Assembly (NCBI GenBank): GCA_050011975.1
Contig: JBEKIB010000006.1
Coordinates: forward strand, 26,433-90,432
Reading direction: 5' to 3'
Length of the DNA stretch: 64,000 nt
Source: Terriglobales bacterium
GTDB taxonomy: Bacteria; Acidobacteriota; Terriglobia; Terriglobales; Acidobacteriaceae
The translations under genes were made by a program, and so were the position numbers. The notes below the pieces were generated by a model, which was given only the letters and a program-made list of their open reading frames with translations, was not told the DNA's origin and ran no database searches. Position 1 is the first letter of the stretch; each line of letters starts with the position of its first letter. Positions 12,644 to 62,884 of the stretch are shown in pieces.

Positions 12644-13420
12644 TTACTGGTTGACGCCGCTGGCCAGAAAACCTCCGTCGACGACCAGCGTCTGCCCGGT
12701 CACGAAAGAAGCGGCATCGGAACAGAGGTAGATCGCGGCTCCGACGAGTTCTTCGGTCTTGCCGAAGCGGCCCATCGGCGTTCGTAGTAGCAACTCCTGG
12801 CCGCGTAGCGTTTTATCGAGCAGGTCTGCATTCAGGTTAGTGCGGAAGACGCCGGGCGCGATCGCGTTCACGGTAACGCCTTTCTTCGACCACTCCACGG
12901 CAAGCGAGCGCGTTAACGAGACAACACCAGCCTTGCTGGCCGCGTAGGCGGCGACCTCGCTGAGCGCAACGAAGCTGTTGAGCGAGGCGATGTTGACAAT
13001 GCGGCCGTAACCACGCTGCAGCATATGCTTGCCGAAGATCTGGCAAGCGCGCAGTGTTCCGGTGAGGTTCGTGTCCAATATATCGGCCCATTCCCCTTCC
13101 GGCATGGTGAGCGTGGGCATGCGCTTAATTTTCCCGGCACAGTTGATAAGGATGTCGACCTTGCCAAAGCGTTGGAGTGAGGCCGCGAGTAGTTGGTCGA
13201 GCGAAGCGCGGTTACGCAGATCCGACGAGAGGCGCAGGGTTTGGCGTCCGCGGCGTTCAATCTCGGCCGCTGTTTCCTCAACGAGTTCCTGGCGGCGTGC
13301 GGACGCGATGACATCGGCTCCGGCATCTGCGAGGCCGAGGCTTAGAGTGCGCCCGATCCCGGAGGTGCCTCCGATCACAACGGCAGTCTTACCTTCAAGA
13401 CTGAGGATAGGGCTCGTCAT
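12644..13420 (-). CDS. Short-chain dehydrogenase/reductase; candidate SDR-type fructuronate reductase / mannonate oxidoreductase
   Basis: 258 aa with VIGGTSGIGR (TGxxxGxG), INCAGK (NxAG) and YAASK (YxxxK). It overlaps the upstream uxaE-like gene by 4 nt. The specific substrate is inferred from context only. Confidence 0.8.
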   Translation of the reverse strand: MTSPILSLEGKTAVVIGGTSGIGRTLSLGLADAGADVIASARRQELVEETAAEIERRGRQTLRLSSDLRNRASLDQLLAASLQRFGKVDILINCAGKIKRMPTLTMPEGEWADILDTNLTGTLRACQIFGKHMLQRGYGRIVNIASLNSFVALSEVAAYAASKAGVVSLTRSLAVEWSKKGVTVNAIAPGVFRTNLNADLLDKTLRGQELLLRTPMGRFGKTEELVGAAIYLCSDAASFVTGQTLVVDGGFLASGVNQ

Positions 13421-14712
13421 TGTTTCTCCACCCGGGTTGCGCTGCGCCCCAGAAAGACGGGAGCGATATGCCGCCCGTAAAGGTTTTCCGTCACGTTCTT
13501 CGCAATCACGGCTTCATTGACCTCGAGCAGGTCCAGATAGCGCCGCCCCATCCCGGCTGCGATCTTGAAGCCGACATGCAGCAACTGGCGAAAGCTGCTG
13601 TTATAAGCTGCCACTCCCGGAACGCGGCGCAGGGCAGAGGTGTATTGCTCTGAGGACCAGGCGCGAACCTCGTCCGGGGACGGAAGCTTCGCTGGGTCGA
13701 TATCGATTACGGTGGCGTAAGGCGCACAAAGCTCATCGCGGTGCGCGCAGGCTTCGGAGTAAATTTCCTTTGCCAGAGCCAGTCCGTCGCCCCCGGCTTC
13801 CGCCAGGCCGATCAACTCTTCGAGCCACGTGGTTCCGGCGGTCTTGAGGTGCACGCCTGCGTTGAACCGCTTCATCGTGGCATGAATGGCAGGGTAGATG
13901 GAGAACTTGTCGCTGCCGGAGTGAACGCTAAGCTTGAGATTTTCAGGTAGGCCATATTGCCGGACCGCGTATGTGATGGCCGCAACGTCGAGCGCCATCT
14001 CTCGCTCGAACTGCGCGACGTCGCCAACGTAGTCCACACCCTTATTGAAGCGGCCGCTGAATTTTGGAGCGATAGTCTGGACGGGGATGTTTTCATCCGC
14101 GATAGCCGCCAGGATGATTAACAGGTCCGCCGGGCTCTGCGCGCGGTCGGTCTCGTCCATGGAGACCTCGGAAATGAAGTTACCGGCGCCCTTGGCCTTC
14201 TCGATCTTGCGGTAGACCTCGCCCGCCTTGTTCACGGCGGCGAGAAACTTCTGTGCGGTCTGACTCAAGTGCTCGTGTGTGATCTCAAAAACCGCGTCCA
14301 CCGTTTCGAGTTGGACGCGCCCCAGCAGCTCCGGGTGCCGCTTCACAAAGCCTTCAATGTTGACTGCTGTCGCCGGCTGGCCGATTGAGTCGGCCACGTC
14401 GATGGTGTAGAAATCGCACGGCCCGAGGAAACGGTCGACCGTTTGCAACGTGATATGGTCGGCATCGCAAAAGTATGGCTTCTCCCACTGCAGCGCCTTT
14501 ACGGCAGCATCGGCCGCTTGCCGCACAGACGAGGGCTCGGACCCAATGATAGTGTGCTCGCGGTTCGACTTATTCCATACCGGAATCACCTCGACGCCGT
14601 TCTGCAGAGCTTGCACGCAAGCCTGCAGCTGGGCTTTGGCCTGGTGCACGAACCTGTCCCCGGTCCCAACGGAATACTTGCCGAGCTTTAAGCCGTTATT
14701 TGCCACTTTCAA
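13417..14712 (-). CDS. uxaE: Tagaturonate/fructuronate epimerase family protein (UxaE-like)
   Basis: 431 aa. Motifs SVGTGDRF, FCDADHI, VSMDETD, DYVGDVAQFEREM, SVHSGSDKFSIYP and HLKTAGTTWLEE match what I recall of the Thermotoga UxaE family. The recognition is from memory, with no search run. Confidence 0.7.
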   Translation of the reverse strand: MKVANNGLKLGKYSVGTGDRFVHQAKAQLQACVQALQNGVEVIPVWNKSNREHTIIGSEPSSVRQAADAAVKALQWEKPYFCDADHITLQTVDRFLGPCDFYTIDVADSIGQPATAVNIEGFVKRHPELLGRVQLETVDAVFEITHEHLSQTAQKFLAAVNKAGEVYRKIEKAKGAGNFISEVSMDETDRAQSPADLLIILAAIADENIPVQTIAPKFSGRFNKGVDYVGDVAQFEREMALDVAAITYAVRQYGLPENLKLSVHSGSDKFSIYPAIHATMKRFNAGVHLKTAGTTWLEELIGLAEAGGDGLALAKEIYSEACAHRDELCAPYATVIDIDPAKLPSPDEVRAWSSEQYTSALRRVPGVAAYNSSFRQLLHVGFKIAAGMGRRYLDLLEVNEAVIAKNVTENLYGRHIAPVFLGRSATRVEKQ

Positions 14713-26085: not shown

Positions 26086-27651
26086 ATGTCCACAATTCGA
26101 CGAACTTTGGAGGCCGTTATGATACCTGCTTTTGCTCTTTCTTTCTGTCCGGCGCGGTTCCGGCGGATGCAGCTTTGCTTGTTTCTTCTAGCCCTGGCTT
26201 GCCTGTTGCTGCCGATTCCGGCGTGGGCGCAGGTGACCTTCACCGGGCCCCAGCCGAGCGTGAACTTCGGCTCTCAGGCAGTGGGATCGCCCAGCGCACC
26301 GGTTTCCCTGCCCTTCACGATCGCAGCAGGCACGACAGTGGCCAGGATCGCCGTGTTGACCACGGGCGTCGCGGGCAAGGACCTCGCCAATGCGACGGGG
26401 ACCACCTGCACGGCAACGACTTACGCCACAGCCACCAACTGCGTGGTCAACGTCAGCTTCAAGCCCCTGGCGACGGGCCTGCGCCGGGGCGCGGTAGTGT
26501 TCTATTCTGGCGCCCCCAAAACAGCGCTGGCCACGGTGCCCGTTTTTGGCATCGGTACCGGGCCACAGGTGGCCTTTGGGCCGGGTGGCGCGCAGACCAA
26601 CGTGGACGGCAAGTTTGTCAGTCCCATGGGCGTGGCCGTGGATGGGGCGGGCAATGTCTACGTTACCGACATTGACCTCCAAAAGGTGTTCAAGGTGACG
26701 CCGGGTGGCAAACAGACCGCGGTGGGTAGCGGGTTTGAAGTGCCCGAAGGCGTGGCCGTGGACGGGGCGGGCAATGTCTACGTCACCGATAGACAACTCC
26801 AGGCGGTGTTCATGGTAACGCCGGGCGGTGTGGAAACCCAGGTGGGCAGCGGACTGTTCTTTATGCCCATGGGCATCGCCGTGGACGGAGCGGGCGACGT
26901 GTACGTTAGTGATCCCTGGTACGACGTGGTTTACGAGATAACGCCAAGCGGTACACAGACCTCGGTGGGCGGCGGATACAACACACCCGCAGGCGTGGCC
27001 GTGGACGCAGCCGGTAATGTGTACGTCGCTGATTGCTTCGAGGCATCTGTGTTCATGATAACGCCGGGCGGCACACAGACCTCGGTGAATGGCACATTCA
27101 TGACTCCCACAGGCGTCGCCGTGGATGCGGCGGGCAACGTCTACGTTACCGATGCAGGCACCGATGCCGTGTACCAGGTAACGCCGGGCGGCGTGCAAAC
27201 TACAGTAAGCAGTGGGTTGAATGTTCCGGACGGCGTGGCCATCGATGGATCCGGCAACGTCTATATCGCCAATACCTTCAGCGAGCAGGTGCTGAAGGTC
27301 GACCGTGTAGACGCGCCGTCGTTGAGCTTTGATGCCACGAAGGTGGGCTCAACGAGTAAGGACAGTCCGAAGACGGTGGAGGTCGAGAACATCGGCAACG
27401 CTTCCCTTGAATTCTCGGCACTGACGTATCCGGTGGACTTCCCCCAGGGCTCCTTGGACGACGCTTGCAACTCGACCACATCGCTGGCAGACGGCAGCAG
27501 TTGCGCGCTGATCATCGACTTCAGTCCGGTGACCCCGCTCGACGGCAAGACCTCGGTGGTGCTGAACGAAGTCGTAAAGTTGAGGACCAACACCCTCAAC
27601 GTGGCCAACAAGCTGCAAAAGGTGGACGTCACCGGCACGGAGAAAAAATAA
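26086..27651 (+). CDS. Secreted NHL-repeat beta-propeller protein with flanking Ig-like segments
   Basis: 521 aa with six consecutive ~42-aa blades carrying GVAVDGAGNVYVTD...V..VTPGG.QT. The N-terminus is hydrophobic. It starts 4 nt after the multicopper oxidase stop. Confidence 0.8.
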   Translation: MSTIRRTLEAVMIPAFALSFCPARFRRMQLCLFLLALACLLLPIPAWAQVTFTGPQPSVNFGSQAVGSPSAPVSLPFTIAAGTTVARIAVLTTGVAGKDLANATGTTCTATTYATATNCVVNVSFKPLATGLRRGAVVFYSGAPKTALATVPVFGIGTGPQVAFGPGGAQTNVDGKFVSPMGVAVDGAGNVYVTDIDLQKVFKVTPGGKQTAVGSGFEVPEGVAVDGAGNVYVTDRQLQAVFMVTPGGVETQVGSGLFFMPMGIAVDGAGDVYVSDPWYDVVYEITPSGTQTSVGGGYNTPAGVAVDAAGNVYVADCFEASVFMITPGGTQTSVNGTFMTPTGVAVDAAGNVYVTDAGTDAVYQVTPGGVQTTVSSGLNVPDGVAIDGSGNVYIANTFSEQVLKVDRVDAPSLSFDATKVGSTSKDSPKTVEVENIGNASLEFSALTYPVDFPQGSLDDACNSTTSLADGSSCALIIDFSPVTPLDGKTSVVLNEVVKLRTNTLNVANKLQKVDVTGTEKK

Positions 27652-47627: not shown

Positions 47628-48521
47628 CTACGGCCTTGTCTTGGCGATTTCGGGGACGGCCGCTTCGCCGGTGCGCTTGCTTGGTTGCTGGCCCAGATGG
47701 TGCCTGGTCAGTCCTTCTTTCAGGAACTCGAAACTTTCCTCCGGCGAATCGCACATCTTGAACAGTTGGAGGTCTTCTGGCGAGATCATGCCGGCGTCGA
47801 CCATGGCTTCGAAATTGACGATCTTCTTCCAGTAATCGCTGCCATAGATGACGATGACAATTTTCTTGGCCAGCTTCTCCGTCTGGGCCAGGGTAACGAT
47901 TTCAAAAAATTCGTCGAGCGTGCCAAAGCCTCCGGGAAAGATCACCAGCGCTTTGGCCAGGTACGCAAACCAGAACTTGCGCATGAAGAAATAGTGGAAC
48001 TCAAAGTTGAGCGAAGGCGTGATGTAGGCGTTCGGATTCTGCTCGAAGGGTAGGTTGATGTTGAGGCCGATGGTTTTTCCTCCCGCTTCATGGGCGCCGA
48101 GATTGGCGGCTTCCATGATGCCCGGGCCGCCGCCCGTGGTGACGACGAAGCGGTGGCGCTTGGCGGGAATCTGGGTGGACCATTCGGTCAGCAGGAAGGC
48201 CAGCCGGCGCGCGTCCTCGTAGTAGCGCGCCATGTCAACCGCGGCCTCGGCGCCCTTCATATTCTTGGCTTGCTGTGCGGCGGAGACGTCAGCGCCGTTG
48301 CCGCGGACTTCCGTCAGACGGTTGCTGGCGTTGTCGCGGCTGTGGATGCGGGCCGAGCCGAAGAAGACGACCGTGTCCTGGATCTGCTCGCGGCGGAAGC
48401 GCGAGAGCGGCTCGCTGTACTCCGACAGCAGGCGCAGAATTCTCCCGTCAGGACTGTTGAGAAATGGTTCGTTCTGATACGCGAGGGGAGCGGGCTTGAG
48501 TTTTTGATCAGTCATAGTCAT
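47628..48521 (-). CDS. LOG-family (TIGR00730-type) nucleotide phosphoribohydrolase-like protein
   Basis: 297 aa with motifs GGGPGIMEA and PGGFGTLDEFFE. Confidence 0.8.
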   Translation of the reverse strand: MTMTDQKLKPAPLAYQNEPFLNSPDGRILRLLSEYSEPLSRFRREQIQDTVVFFGSARIHSRDNASNRLTEVRGNGADVSAAQQAKNMKGAEAAVDMARYYEDARRLAFLLTEWSTQIPAKRHRFVVTTGGGPGIMEAANLGAHEAGGKTIGLNINLPFEQNPNAYITPSLNFEFHYFFMRKFWFAYLAKALVIFPGGFGTLDEFFEIVTLAQTEKLAKKIVIVIYGSDYWKKIVNFEAMVDAGMISPEDLQLFKMCDSPEESFEFLKEGLTRHHLGQQPSKRTGEAAVPEIAKTRP

Positions 48522-48647
48522 TGAGGCATTGAATCATTTAATCATTGAGTCATTTGATCATTGAATCACTGAGACCTTGAATCATTGGGGCATTGGGTTA
48601 ATGTTTCAATACCTCAATGATTCAATGACTCAATGACTCAATGTCTC
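48520..48647. repeat. Periodic-arm palindrome 2 (16 in-phase octamers, ATTGAnTC then AATGAnTC)
   Basis: The first ten units are ATTGAGGC ATTGAATC ATTTAATC ATTGAGTC ATTTGATC ATTGAATC ACTGAGAC CTTGAATC ATTGGGGC ATTGGGTT. The next six are AATGTTTC AATACCTC AATGATTC AATGACTC AATGACTC AATGTCTC. The halves are imperfect reverse complements. The array touches the LOG start codon at one end and the stop of the 48646..49089 ORF at the other. Confidence 0.9.
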
Positions 48648-49089
48648 ATTCTTCCTGATATTGAATGGCCTCCCAAAATCCGATCCACACATTGAGCACG
48701 CCCAAGCCGGTCGAGACGCCGCGCGCGAAGCCGCTGGCTACAATGGCGCGAAGCGTGGGATACGGGAGGAGCAGAGGGTTGTCGGACCACTCGGGACGCC
48801 AGGGCAGAATCATGAGCATCACCCCCACCGTTGCGCACAGGAACACGAACAGTAGCACTCCGATGCGGCGCAGCCACACCCGCGCGACCGAAGGCGAGGG
48901 TCTGGAACCCGAAACTGGCACGGGCGCTTGCACGGGAACGACCGGGACGGATGTTTCCGTCGGGGATTTGAGTTCTCCGACACTGGTGGAGTCGCTGCCA
49001 AAGGGTAGCTTGGGATCGGAAATCATTGCACGCGTCGTTGTAGATAAGGCCGTGGGGTGGGCGCGGGATCGAGTTGCATCCCAGCGCAA
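48646..49089 (-). CDS. Hypothetical membrane protein downstream of the TPR gene
   Basis: 147 aa with two hydrophobic helices (IGVLLFVFLCATVGVMLMIL and GVSTGLGVLNVWIGFW) and a Pro/Ser-rich N-terminal part. No family recognised and the start is uncertain. Confidence 0.45.
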   Translation of the reverse strand: MRWDATRSRAHPTALSTTTRAMISDPKLPFGSDSTSVGELKSPTETSVPVVPVQAPVPVSGSRPSPSVARVWLRRIGVLLFVFLCATVGVMLMILPWRPEWSDNPLLLPYPTLRAIVASGFARGVSTGLGVLNVWIGFWEAIQYQEE

Positions 49090-49112
49090 GTTTTGAACCC
49101 ACTTGGTGCATT

Positions 49113-57552: not shown

Positions 57553-57556
57553 AATT

Positions 57557-57643
57557 AATTTGTGATTTCCAATTTGTAATTTGTGATTAAGAACCGCGCA
57601 ATGGGCTTTTTAATTACAAATTACAAACCGCAAATTACAAATT
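57557..57643. repeat. Periodic-arm palindrome 4 (heptamer units ATTTGTr / TTACAAA) between pyrR and pyrB
   Basis: The left arm is AATTTGTGATTTCCAATTTGTAATTTGTGATTAA (57557-90). The right arm is TTAATTACAAATTACAAACCGCAAATTACAAATT (57610-43). The arms are 34 nt with a 4-nt internal mismatch block. The right arm contains the pyrR stop codon. The left arm ends 4 nt from the pyrB ATG. Confidence 0.9.
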
Positions 57644-58290: not shown

Positions 58291-59013
58291 CTACACGCTG
58301 GTTTTGCCGGGCCGCAGCAACAGCGTGGCCAGCGCACCTCCAACGGAGGCGAGCACCGCGGTAACAATCATCCCAAAAAAGAAGGTGAGCGCCAGCCCCG
58401 ACGGGGTGAACAGGTTGTGGATGCTGGCTTGAATGTCAGGGTCCGCCGCGTTGGCTCCGAACCTTTGCGCGACTTTCAGGACGGCCTCGGTGTATTCCTG
58501 CTGGGCATGAAAGACAAAAATCCGGATGGTGATCAACAGAGCGTTAATGGCGAAGGCGACGACGCCCGCTGCTCCTCCGACACGCGCTCCGAGAGCGGCA
58601 GGAAGTGCGAATCCATTTTCGCGGCGGTAGAAAAAGACGCCCAGCGCCCCAGTCAGCACGATGCCGAGAAATGGGATCATGCCGATGAAAACGCCGAGCA
58701 CACCGGCCTTGAGCGCAGCCCGAACGGCAATTCCCCTGTCGATCGTTCCGGCCATCGTGCTTCCGAATGGCTGCCTCGGAGACGAAACCAGCCCCGTCTC
58801 TGCGGGAATCTCCGGAGGAGCCTCGTCCGGCGCGGGTTTCAAGTCCGCGCCAATTTCAGCATCCGGAATCGCCACCTGCACGTGTATTTGAGGGGCGCGG
58901 CATTGCGGACAAAACGGCCGCCCGTCCTCGACCGTGGTCCCACATTGTTGGCAAGGGTGTTCCACGTCTTTGAAGCTAGCGCACAACGAACCCCGAGAGC
59001 AAGGCAGGGCCAT
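58291..59013 (-). CDS. Zinc-ribbon domain membrane protein
   Basis: 240 aa with N-terminal CQQCGTTVEDGRPFCPQCRAPQI (CxxC...CxxC), followed by about 4 TM helices. Confidence 0.5.
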   Translation of the reverse strand: MALPCSRGSLCASFKDVEHPCQQCGTTVEDGRPFCPQCRAPQIHVQVAIPDAEIGADLKPAPDEAPPEIPAETGLVSSPRQPFGSTMAGTIDRGIAVRAALKAGVLGVFIGMIPFLGIVLTGALGVFFYRRENGFALPAALGARVGGAAGVVAFAINALLITIRIFVFHAQQEYTEAVLKVAQRFGANAADPDIQASIHNLFTPSGLALTFFFGMIVTAVLASVGGALATLLLRPGKTSV

Positions 59014-59107
59014 TGAATCATTGAGTCATTACGTCATTGAATCATTGGGTGATCTGGTAAGGAGGGACGATTCCATGATGCAATGTCTCAATGCCTCAAT
59101 GCCTCAT
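59011..59107. repeat. Periodic-arm palindrome 5 (same ATTGAnTC / AATGnCTC octamer family as palindrome 2)
   Basis: The left arm is CATTGAAT CATTGAGT CATTACGT CATTGAAT CATTGGGT. The loop contains AAGGAGG. The right arm is CAATGTCT CAATGCCT CAATGCCT CAT. It starts with the complement of the zinc-ribbon gene ATG and ends 1 nt before the lipoprotein gene stop. Confidence 0.85.
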
Positions 59108-62708: not shown

Positions 62709-62884
62709 GGAATATACCGCCAGTAGCGGATGATGGTGAGAACGAGCAGTAGAACCGCCATGAGAAGCAATCCGGTGGCTTCGGCGGCGTAGATGGAATG
62801 GCGGTGCTGATGCTTGTTGTCCTGATGCTGGTTGTGCTGATGCTCGTGGTCGGCCGCCGGCTTCGGGGGAACGGGGGAGTTCAC
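62693..62884 (-). CDS. Small His-rich single-pass membrane protein (tentative)
   Basis: 63 aa with a GTG start. The N-terminus DHEHQHNQHQDNKHQHRH is followed by one TM helix (GLLLMAVLLLVLTII). It overlaps the miaA start by 16 nt. No SD is visible. Confidence 0.3.
   Translation of the reverse strand: MNSPVPPKPAADHEHQHNQHQDNKHQHRHSIYAAEATGLLLMAVLLLVLTIIRYWRYIPWNAR

Follow-up and report, generated by a model that had tools for sequence, protein, structure and literature searches.

A hairpin of 133 bases, built from sixteen 8-base repeats, occupies the gap between a gene for a small membrane protein and a LOG-family gene in the window analysed here (the whole 64,000-nucleotide stretch of contig JBEKIB010000006.1, whose numbering is used throughout). 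Both genes are encoded on the minus strand. The LOG-family gene (47628-48515) matches PF03641 (E 1.6e-29) and also SLOG cluster 4. The upstream gene (48646-49089) encodes a 147-aa protein that ends in ...WIGFWEAIQYQEE and for which a Pfam search returned no match; its C-terminus and stop position are kept in relatives. It was predicted, as were all genes in this genome, with a simple codon-bias caller of our own (4066 genes, 85% coverage), the calls of which are approximate. An open reading frame at 48638-49111 was rejected as the upstream gene, being in the wrong frame relative to the conserved one.

The boundaries of both genes touch the repeats. The TGA stop codon of the upstream gene (48646-48648) falls within the outermost, degenerate unit of the hairpin. 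At the other end, a 6-nt duplication (ATGACT ATGACT, minus strand, 48513-48521) places two in-frame ATGs at 48521-48519 and 48515-48513. The LOG protein probably starts at the second of these, because its relatives align from residue 3 and begin at ATGACTGAT; the first ATG is part of the last repeat unit. Given these corrected stop and start positions, the hairpin (48516-48648) takes up the entire spacer. An earlier reading of this DNA, made from the sequence only, had described an array that bridges a stop codon and a start codon, and the revised gene boundaries agree with it.

Anatomy of the octamer hairpin

The LOG-side arm, which is the 3' arm in the mRNA (48518-48597, minus strand), consists of ten octamers that read xCATTGAx on the plus strand and are of nnxCAATG type in mRNA sense. 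The stop-side arm, the 5' arm in the mRNA (48598-48648, minus strand), has six octamers that read TCAATGxx on the plus strand and are of CATTGAnn type in mRNA sense. These six units span 48598-48645, after which a degenerate 17th unit carries the upstream stop codon. The centre of the element lies at 48588-48605. Start-to-start unit spacings are multiples of 8 throughout, centre included; the phase runs unbroken through the centre because reverse complementation leaves the unit core, TCA(T/A)TGA, unchanged. Our unit reading from 48518 reproduces the sixteen octamers, ten plus six in a single 8-nt phase, of the sequence-only reading. The best inverted pair (56 nt per arm, arms 3-19 nt apart) has 77% complementarity, close to the 75% or so given there for the two halves.

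Both arrays were detected by TRF with period 8 (scores 70 and 58; 8.8 and 4.5 copies). A doublet of the unit, CATTGANNCATTGA, occurs 12 times in the window with at most one mismatch, compared with 0.23 occurrences expected. All 12 matches are within the hairpin or within a sister element at 59011-59107, a second copy of the CATTGA octamer family that is supported by TRF as well as by the doublet matches.

Neither a terminator-like site nor a U-tract was identified in 48500-48660, and the stem is A+T-rich and continues into the LOG start. Searched against Rfam, the region fell into no family and gave just generic hairpin hits to plant microRNA models (34 bits, where the gathering threshold is 96). 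Promoter-like hexamers within the array are at chance level (1 found, 0.5 expected). The array sits between stop and start codons rather than in a reading frame or a promoter spacer, where the repeat of a phase-variable contingency locus would be expected. It had been proposed that a change of one 8-nt unit would shift a frame; however, the array is wholly intergenic, and thus the gain or loss of units moves no reading frame.

The RNA folds strongly in both directions. In mRNA sense the predicted energy is -53.1 kcal/mol (z -5.4) and on the plus strand -54.2 kcal/mol (z -4.5), both relative to dinucleotide shuffles. The proposal that several mismatches become G-U pairs only in a plus-strand (antisense) RNA does not hold: the four best registers contain 3, 4, 1 and 3 such mismatches on the plus strand and 2, 5, 4 and 4 on the minus strand. 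Nor is the plus-strand RNA favoured energetically, as the element has -50.1 kcal/mol on either strand.

Inverted tandem arrays across the genome

The genome, that of a soil acidobacterium, is a 5.08-Mb draft with 58% G+C, and its nearest named relatives are MAGs of the Terriglobales/Acidobacteriaceae. TRF reports periods 7 (696 rows) and 8 (405 rows) more often than any other period. Elements were defined as pairs of arrays whose consensus units are reverse complements and which lie no more than 120 nt apart. Before merging there were 139 pairs with a 7-nt period, 61 with an 8-nt period and 1 with a 9-nt period; merging left 198 inverted array pairs, which fall into about a dozen unit families. 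As the TRF thresholds miss degenerate arms, these numbers are minima. A more sensitive scan found 61 clusters of the CATTGA family, 35 of them two-armed. Of 24 genomes of the same genus, 19 have this repeat family, in greatly differing numbers, as does 1 of 16 from the sister family.

Nearly all of the elements (189 of 198) lie between called genes, with 7 inside ORF calls and 2 at contig edges. The flanking genes are co-directional in 139 cases, convergent in 24 and divergent in 26. Between co-directional genes, the median distance from the stop codon to the element is 3 nt (interquartile range 0.5-6.5), and that from the element to the next start is 16 nt. These 139 oriented elements behave alike on the two strands. 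Mean folding energy is -50.07 kcal/mol in the sense and -49.50 kcal/mol in the antisense direction (Wilcoxon p = 0.31), and arm length shows no bias with respect to the direction of transcription (p = 0.80).

Copies within one family have the unit alone in common. Their centres are unrelated and range from 10 to 100 nt, and the order of unit variants differs from copy to copy. Pairing specific to an element was not apparent either, as complementarity between the arms of one element equals that between arms of different copies in six of the seven families compared. Given the unrelated centres and a self-arm match no better than that across copies, whole elements are not copied in the manner of MITEs or REPs. 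A MITE was rejected on the first of these grounds and also because no duplication is visible at the listed flanks or at filled and empty pyrR-pyrB sites (see below). Unit decay showed no trend along the arm between its outer and its inner end, in a test that is biased by the TRF array boundaries.

The order of the arms is constant in every family (191 of 198 elements, the other seven being a clustering artefact), and all but one of the 35 two-armed CATTGA clusters (34) have the CATTGA arm in first place. The 5' arm is G+T-rich whichever strand is read (169 elements versus 25, mean 0.61; 15 unit families versus 5). We considered stop codons in the arm that a ribosome meets first as a cause of this polarity, and rejected them: 5' arms carry 4.4 stop trinucleotides per 100 nt and 3' arms 6.8, and 90 of the 198 5' arms have none. 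The constant polarity is a regularity that every mechanism proposed for these elements must explain.

REP and REPIN sequences of E. coli and Pseudomonas are numerous intergenic, imperfect palindromes that are often located a few nucleotides from a stop codon. The elements described here share their number, intergenic location, palindromic form and proximity to stop codons, and the genome encodes three homologues of RAYT (REP-associated tyrosine transposase) that score above the NCBIfam cut-off of 80 (109.9, 98.5 and 81.4 bits). The elements could be REP/REPIN-type sequences copied by one of the RAYTs of this genome, an explanation that we consider quite improbable. Their arms are tandem arrays that lack the conserved GTAG-type head tetranucleotide, and their centres are unrelated in sequence and differ in length. 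Furthermore, no RAYT gene of the three has an array as its direct neighbour; the closest arrays are about 480 nt (C16) and 1.7 kb (C7) away, past neighbouring genes.

Some elements enclose a gene. We identified five PF05635 genes in the genome (two of them broken), each surrounded by inverted arrays. PF05635 is the family to which the four-helix-bundle protein of 23S rRNA intervening sequences belongs, and the closest solved structure to the protein is 2GSC from Xanthomonas campestris (E 2.4e-23). The arms of the five cassettes are of the CAGTGGT, CAGCTCT, GGTTTCAA, CAGCACT and GTCGTTG families, all of which also form gene-less hairpins. Genes of this family occur in 41 of 41 genus genomes sampled. 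The 30 best-scoring cassettes of the genus nearly all have 7-nt arrays at one or both gene ends, mostly as inverted pairs. Clades of the PF05635 protein track the arm family, and three pairs of same-arm cassettes are found at different sites; however, most same-arm cassettes are at orthologous positions, and thus the match between clade and arm family is largely a matter of inheritance. CATTGA arms were found on none of the 35 cassettes examined (the five of this genome and the 30 best-scoring of the genus, with about 160 further matches outside this sample). The hairpin at the LOG junction, with a centre of just 3-19 nt, encloses no gene and is not itself such a cassette. The CATTGA octamer family would therefore be tied to the four-helix-bundle cassettes through their shared architecture only.

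The arrays may instead be phased DNA binding sites for a putative protein, for example a pentameric four-helix bundle, with a role in chromosome organisation, recombination or defence. A constant arm order with a G+T-rich 5' arm (169 versus 25) would suggest recognition of sequence beyond pairing, both strands behave alike, and the four-helix-bundle cassettes have a matching arm design. We nonetheless find this reading improbable, given that a period of 7-8 bp is unlike the DNA helical repeat and that the CATTGA family lacks a cassette partner among those examined.

The window also includes a junction between pyrR and pyrB. Among 29 genus genomes it contains an AATTTGT hairpin in 10, other, unrelated hairpins in about 8, and is empty in about 10, where -4 to 28 nt separate stop from start. 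In one genome the array begins right after the native TAG of pyrR. In the genome studied here the native TAG is lost, and pyrR ends three codons later at a TAA supplied by the array.

Alleles of the LOG junction

The spacer between orthologues of the upstream gene and LOG was compared across loci taken from one genome per species. The three closest relatives have GTCGTT heptamers at this position. One locus (L005) retains a decayed CATTGA element with an unexceptional fold (z -0.07), another (L038) has an octamer hairpin of the AATTTGGT type, and two (L017 and L020) contain other heptamers. Arrays were not detected in the spacers of L004, L006, L007 and L010, where the folds are like those of shuffled sequences (z 0.03, 0.81, 1.27 and -0.72). 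In these array-less orthologous loci, which have 72-81% LOG identity, both genes are intact. The operon does not depend on the hairpin, since distant orthologues lack it and the L005 copy has decayed. The functional role suggested for the element, which the sequence-only reading had itself made to depend on its presence at orthologous loci, is thus not upheld.

A 26-mer taken from the upstream gene's end, matched exactly, retrieved 92 stretches of metagenome contigs. From these stretches, the window and two of the species loci, 92 junctions were readable end to end. An inverted-array hairpin is present in all 92 (52 GTCGTT, 31 CATTGA and 9 AATTTGT alleles). Separate assemblies share identical alleles, and the structure is therefore not an assembly artefact. 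Most alleles have a conserved centre specific to their family (44 of 52 GTCGTT, 28 of 31 CATTGA and 8 of 9 AATTTGT), the one common to the CATTGA alleles being the motif CCCAATGCC (mRNA sense), which is included in the centre of the window copy. Thus, the junctions represent three allelic lineages and not many independent insertions. Eight of the nine AATTTGT alleles retain two to four CATTGA units beside the LOG start, from which it follows that they derive from a CATTGA element that was invaded. The three family labels are scattered over a tree built from the flanks (86 rows, 619 columns) and require at least 21 changes, a distribution that points to exchange of alleles between populations or to a long-standing polymorphism.

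The hairpin changes by slippage of units as well as by replacement. Spacers of the CATTGA lineage are 70 to 177 nt long, one arm having 2-6 units and the other 4-14; between close alleles the differences are exact steps of 8 or 16 nt. The alleles nearest to the window copy (L128, L130 and L136, 95% flank identity) have a stop-proximal arm that is one unit shorter. A comparison of unit number in related strains had been suggested from the sequence, and the number does vary. That every one of the 92 clade junctions is occupied could, as a separate observation, mean that the hairpin is under selection here.

Seven AUGs precede the LOG start in the window copy, all of them in the LOG-side arm (48518-48597, mRNA sense), and five open mini-ORFs of three codons. 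A ladder of out-of-frame start/stop pairs, as described earlier, therefore exists, although only in CATTGA alleles. The TCAATGA said to be repeated on the coding strand is also present, but the exact heptamer occurs just three times and the remaining units are variants. There are 6.0 ATGs per spacer in CATTGA, 1.2 in GTCGTT and 2.0 in AATTTGT alleles; the ATG counts are not kept in the latter two, as they would be for a conserved upstream ORF or leader peptide. With three unit families at one junction, LOG is expressed behind three unrelated leaders. The ladder and the variable unit number would both fit the idea that AUG/UGA pairs, or an antisense plus-strand RNA, regulate LOG translation with the number of octamers as a switch. 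The probability of this is close to negligible in our view: GTCGTT and AATTTGT alleles (61 of 92 populations) lack the ladder, the G-U mismatches have no plus-strand bias, the array is outside every reading frame, and the AUGs are buried in a stem with a folding energy near -50 kcal/mol. The unit core itself yields the AUG/UGA ladder as a by-product.

What the alleles do share is a strong fold. Over the 92 junctions the mean energy is -41 to -51 kcal/mol, compared with -21 to -35 kcal/mol for shuffles, in every unit family. When alleles at the LOG junction are folded, 2.8 of the 3 nt of the stop codon and 1.5 of the 3 nt of the start codon are paired. The hairpin could thus be a selected intercistronic RNA device (a coupling stem, an RNase III site or an mRNA stabiliser) whose strength is tuned by unit number and which would set the ratio of upstream protein to LOG. 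Consistent with this, a strong hairpin is kept in 92 of 92 clade junctions irrespective of unit family, the stop and start codons are in the base of the stem, elements adjoin stop codons genome-wide (median 3 nt), and RNase III cuts analogous stems of intervening sequences (PMC4990558). We regard selection for such a device as unlikely, however. Stability in sense and antisense direction and arm length are equal over the 139 oriented elements, and the arms of one element match no better than those of other copies. Moreover, distant orthologues have an unstructured spacer, the L005 copy is decayed, and about 10 of 29 genus genomes have no element between pyrR and pyrB.

Relation to known repeats and mode of turnover

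Among described repeats, the GGGAATC heptamer arrays of Xanthomonas come closest, and each genome has 70-75 of them as convergent (inverted) pairs (Rehm et al. 2015, PMC4692102). These are likewise intergenic tandem arrays of the 7-nt class, often in convergent pairs able to form stem-loops, and the length of the array varies among related species while its type is kept (PMC4692102). The unit at the LOG junction differs in being 8 nt long, with a self-complementary core, and in not being G-rich; it therefore forms no quadruplex. The Terriglobales genome also has about a dozen unit families instead of one, and the LOG-junction element occupies its spacer from stop codon to start codon.

Many of the units found here (CAGTGGT, CAGTTCT, CAGTACC and CAGTTAT) share the CAGTnnn theme of the cyanobacterial STRR heptamers, the unit sequences of which are reportedly those given by Mazel et al. 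1990. TAACTGA-type heptamer repeats have been described in Beggiatoaceae, cyanobacteria and Bacteroidetes (MacGregor 2015, PMC4679880). The STRR and TAACTGA repeats resemble the present elements in being abundant, intergenic, lineage-specific 7-nt tandem repeats near gene ends; they are mostly single direct arrays upstream of start codons, whereas inverted pairs dominate here, and a single inverted case was reported in Beggiatoa (PMC4679880).

An architecture like that of the five gene-bearing cassettes is known from Coxiella, where the intervening sequence of the 23S rRNA carries an S23p/PF05635 gene and is excised by RNase III, which cuts the stem at the first heptamer repeat (PMC4990558). 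The number of heptamer repeats differs among strains (Warrier et al. 2016, PMC4990558). In both cases a long stem of complementary ends surrounds a small four-helix-bundle gene; the LOG-junction element, however, is gene-less, belongs to an mRNA spacer rather than to an rRNA, and has an octamer unit.

Foldback (FB) transposons are a eukaryotic family with a known transposase. They too have inverted arms made of tandem subrepeats, unequal arm lengths, a variable centre and, in some copies, a gene, a likeness that we treat as an analogy of design with no homology implied. With tandem arms whose unit is within the 5-11 nt of the heptamer/LSSR class, inverted arrays, many copies and variable unit number, the LOG-junction element belongs to a known class of inverted-array repeats. 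What is new is a Terriglobales octamer family with a self-complementary core.

These hairpins are numerous, turn over fast and behave alike on the two strands. The LOG-junction element is most probably foldback-type repeat DNA that turns over at the DNA level, any effects at the RNA level being incidental. It would be a gene-less copy of the genome-wide class, in which two inverted tandem arrays of the degenerate octamer CATTGAnn and its complement make up the spacer. Slippage would add and remove units, and other unit families would replace or invade whole elements. Tandem arms can pair in any register, and a hairpin should therefore outlive the gain or loss of units without compensating changes. 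The polycistronic mRNA would in this way acquire an imperfect stem of about 50 bp (about -50 kcal/mol), in which the upstream stop codon pairs with sequence before the LOG start. A ribosome terminating on the upstream gene may melt the stem at its base and make the LOG start accessible, which would couple LOG translation to upstream termination, and RNase III could cleave the stem in the way known for the related rRNA intervening sequences. Any effect of the hairpin on LOG expression would come from this mRNA stem.

As a regulatory device for LOG the hairpin is not upheld, and on its own the finding is an ordinary one. It is of use as a thoroughly documented example of a little-understood class of bacterial repeats: one junction, occupied in all of 92 environmental populations, with three unrelated unit families, unit-number polymorphism and one nested replacement. 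This natural set of alleles is suited to asking whether such hairpins alter the expression of flanking genes, and what makes them, be it slippage alone, a partner of the four-helix-bundle/reverse-transcriptase kind, or RAYT.

The PF05635 family is related to Avd, the accessory protein of diversity-generating retroelements (PMC10053308). The arrays might be scars of a templated, telomerase-like process in which the two 3' ends flanking a break or a cargo are extended by repeats and afterwards joined, with one of the orphan reverse transcriptases and the Avd-like four-helix-bundle protein perhaps as the agent. We hold this to be very improbable. If true, it would explain why the G+T-rich strand runs 5' to 3' towards the centre, why arm order is constant and unit numbers are independent, and why centres are unrelated, target duplications are not seen and the same arms also surround Avd-like genes.

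Replacement of repeat families at the LOG junction

The spacer upstream of the LOG-family gene is occupied by CATTGA, GTCGTT or AATTTGT units in different relatives. Eight of the AATTTGT alleles (L093, L118, L124, L125, L143, L146, L170 and L174) retain two to four CATTGA-family units beside the LOG start. These leftover units identify the eight alleles as nested replacements of one repeat family by another. In the window, where the junction carries the CATTGA octamer hairpin, a 6-nt tandem duplication (ATGACT ATGACT, 48513-48524) bridges the last repeat unit and the LOG start. It creates an additional in-frame ATG two codons 5' of the conserved start, and the nearest alleles (L128, L130 and L136) have it too.

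In Acidobacteriota of other orders, the LOG orthologue likewise has inverted arrays nearby, built from different units of 7, 8, 9 or 10 nt (loci L060 from Blastocatellia, L033 from Vicinamibacterales, L031, L038 and L042). A Burkholderiales locus (L077) has GTTCAAG arrays, which are long and single.

Occupancy of the pyrR-pyrB junction

The interval from the pyrR stop to the pyrB start (window 57553-57634) was compared with loci L211-L240. Among 29 genomes of the genus, the junction holds an AATTTGT hairpin in 10 and unrelated hairpin elements in about eight, and is empty in about 10, with stop-to-start distances of -4 to 28 nt. In the genome that contains the window (G000), the native TAG of pyrR is gone, and a TAA from the array terminates the gene three codons later (EKQ* becomes EKQVNL*). 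The spacers of L221 and L232 have a different insert, a long, near-perfect palindrome that starts TGTCATCCCGAGCGAAGCGAGGGATC and lacks tandem-unit substructure; thus, this junction is used by several kinds of hairpin element. Array-free spacers (L222, L238 and L219) show short tandem duplications that span the stop-codon region (e.g., CAGTAGACAACT, repeated), and such duplications may be seeds of arrays.

Arm order, a doubled-arm cassette and other genes and repeats

Across all 198 elements of G000, arm order is constant inside each unit family. Whichever strand is read, the 5' arm is rich in G+T (mean 0.61; 169 elements versus 25), a polarity for which stop-codon content fails to account. One cassette with a four-helix-bundle (PF05635, Avd-like) gene (C12:13021-13540) has a single 5'-type arm (GTCAGTG, 13021-13059) that precedes two 3' arms of the same type, the ACTGACC arrays at 13082-13112 and 13510-13540, which flank the gene. 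The 5' arm can therefore pair with either copy, forming a loop with or without the gene.

Three homologues of RAYT (REP-associated tyrosine transposase) score above the NCBIfam cut-off in G000 (C7:79264-79857, C16:35626-36291 and C95:209-691), and none of the three is flanked by arrays. Nor does a four-helix-bundle gene adjoin any of its three stand-alone reverse-transcriptase genes, which have RVT_1 only (C142:5759-7321, C16:54815-56191 and C123:4684-6285). Other repeats in the window are a 120-nt tandem repeat (26629-26852; 1.9 copies, 78% matches) and a 15-nt repeat, CTGATGCTGGTTGTC, present in about 2.5 copies at 62804-62850, where it adjoins the sixth palindrome.
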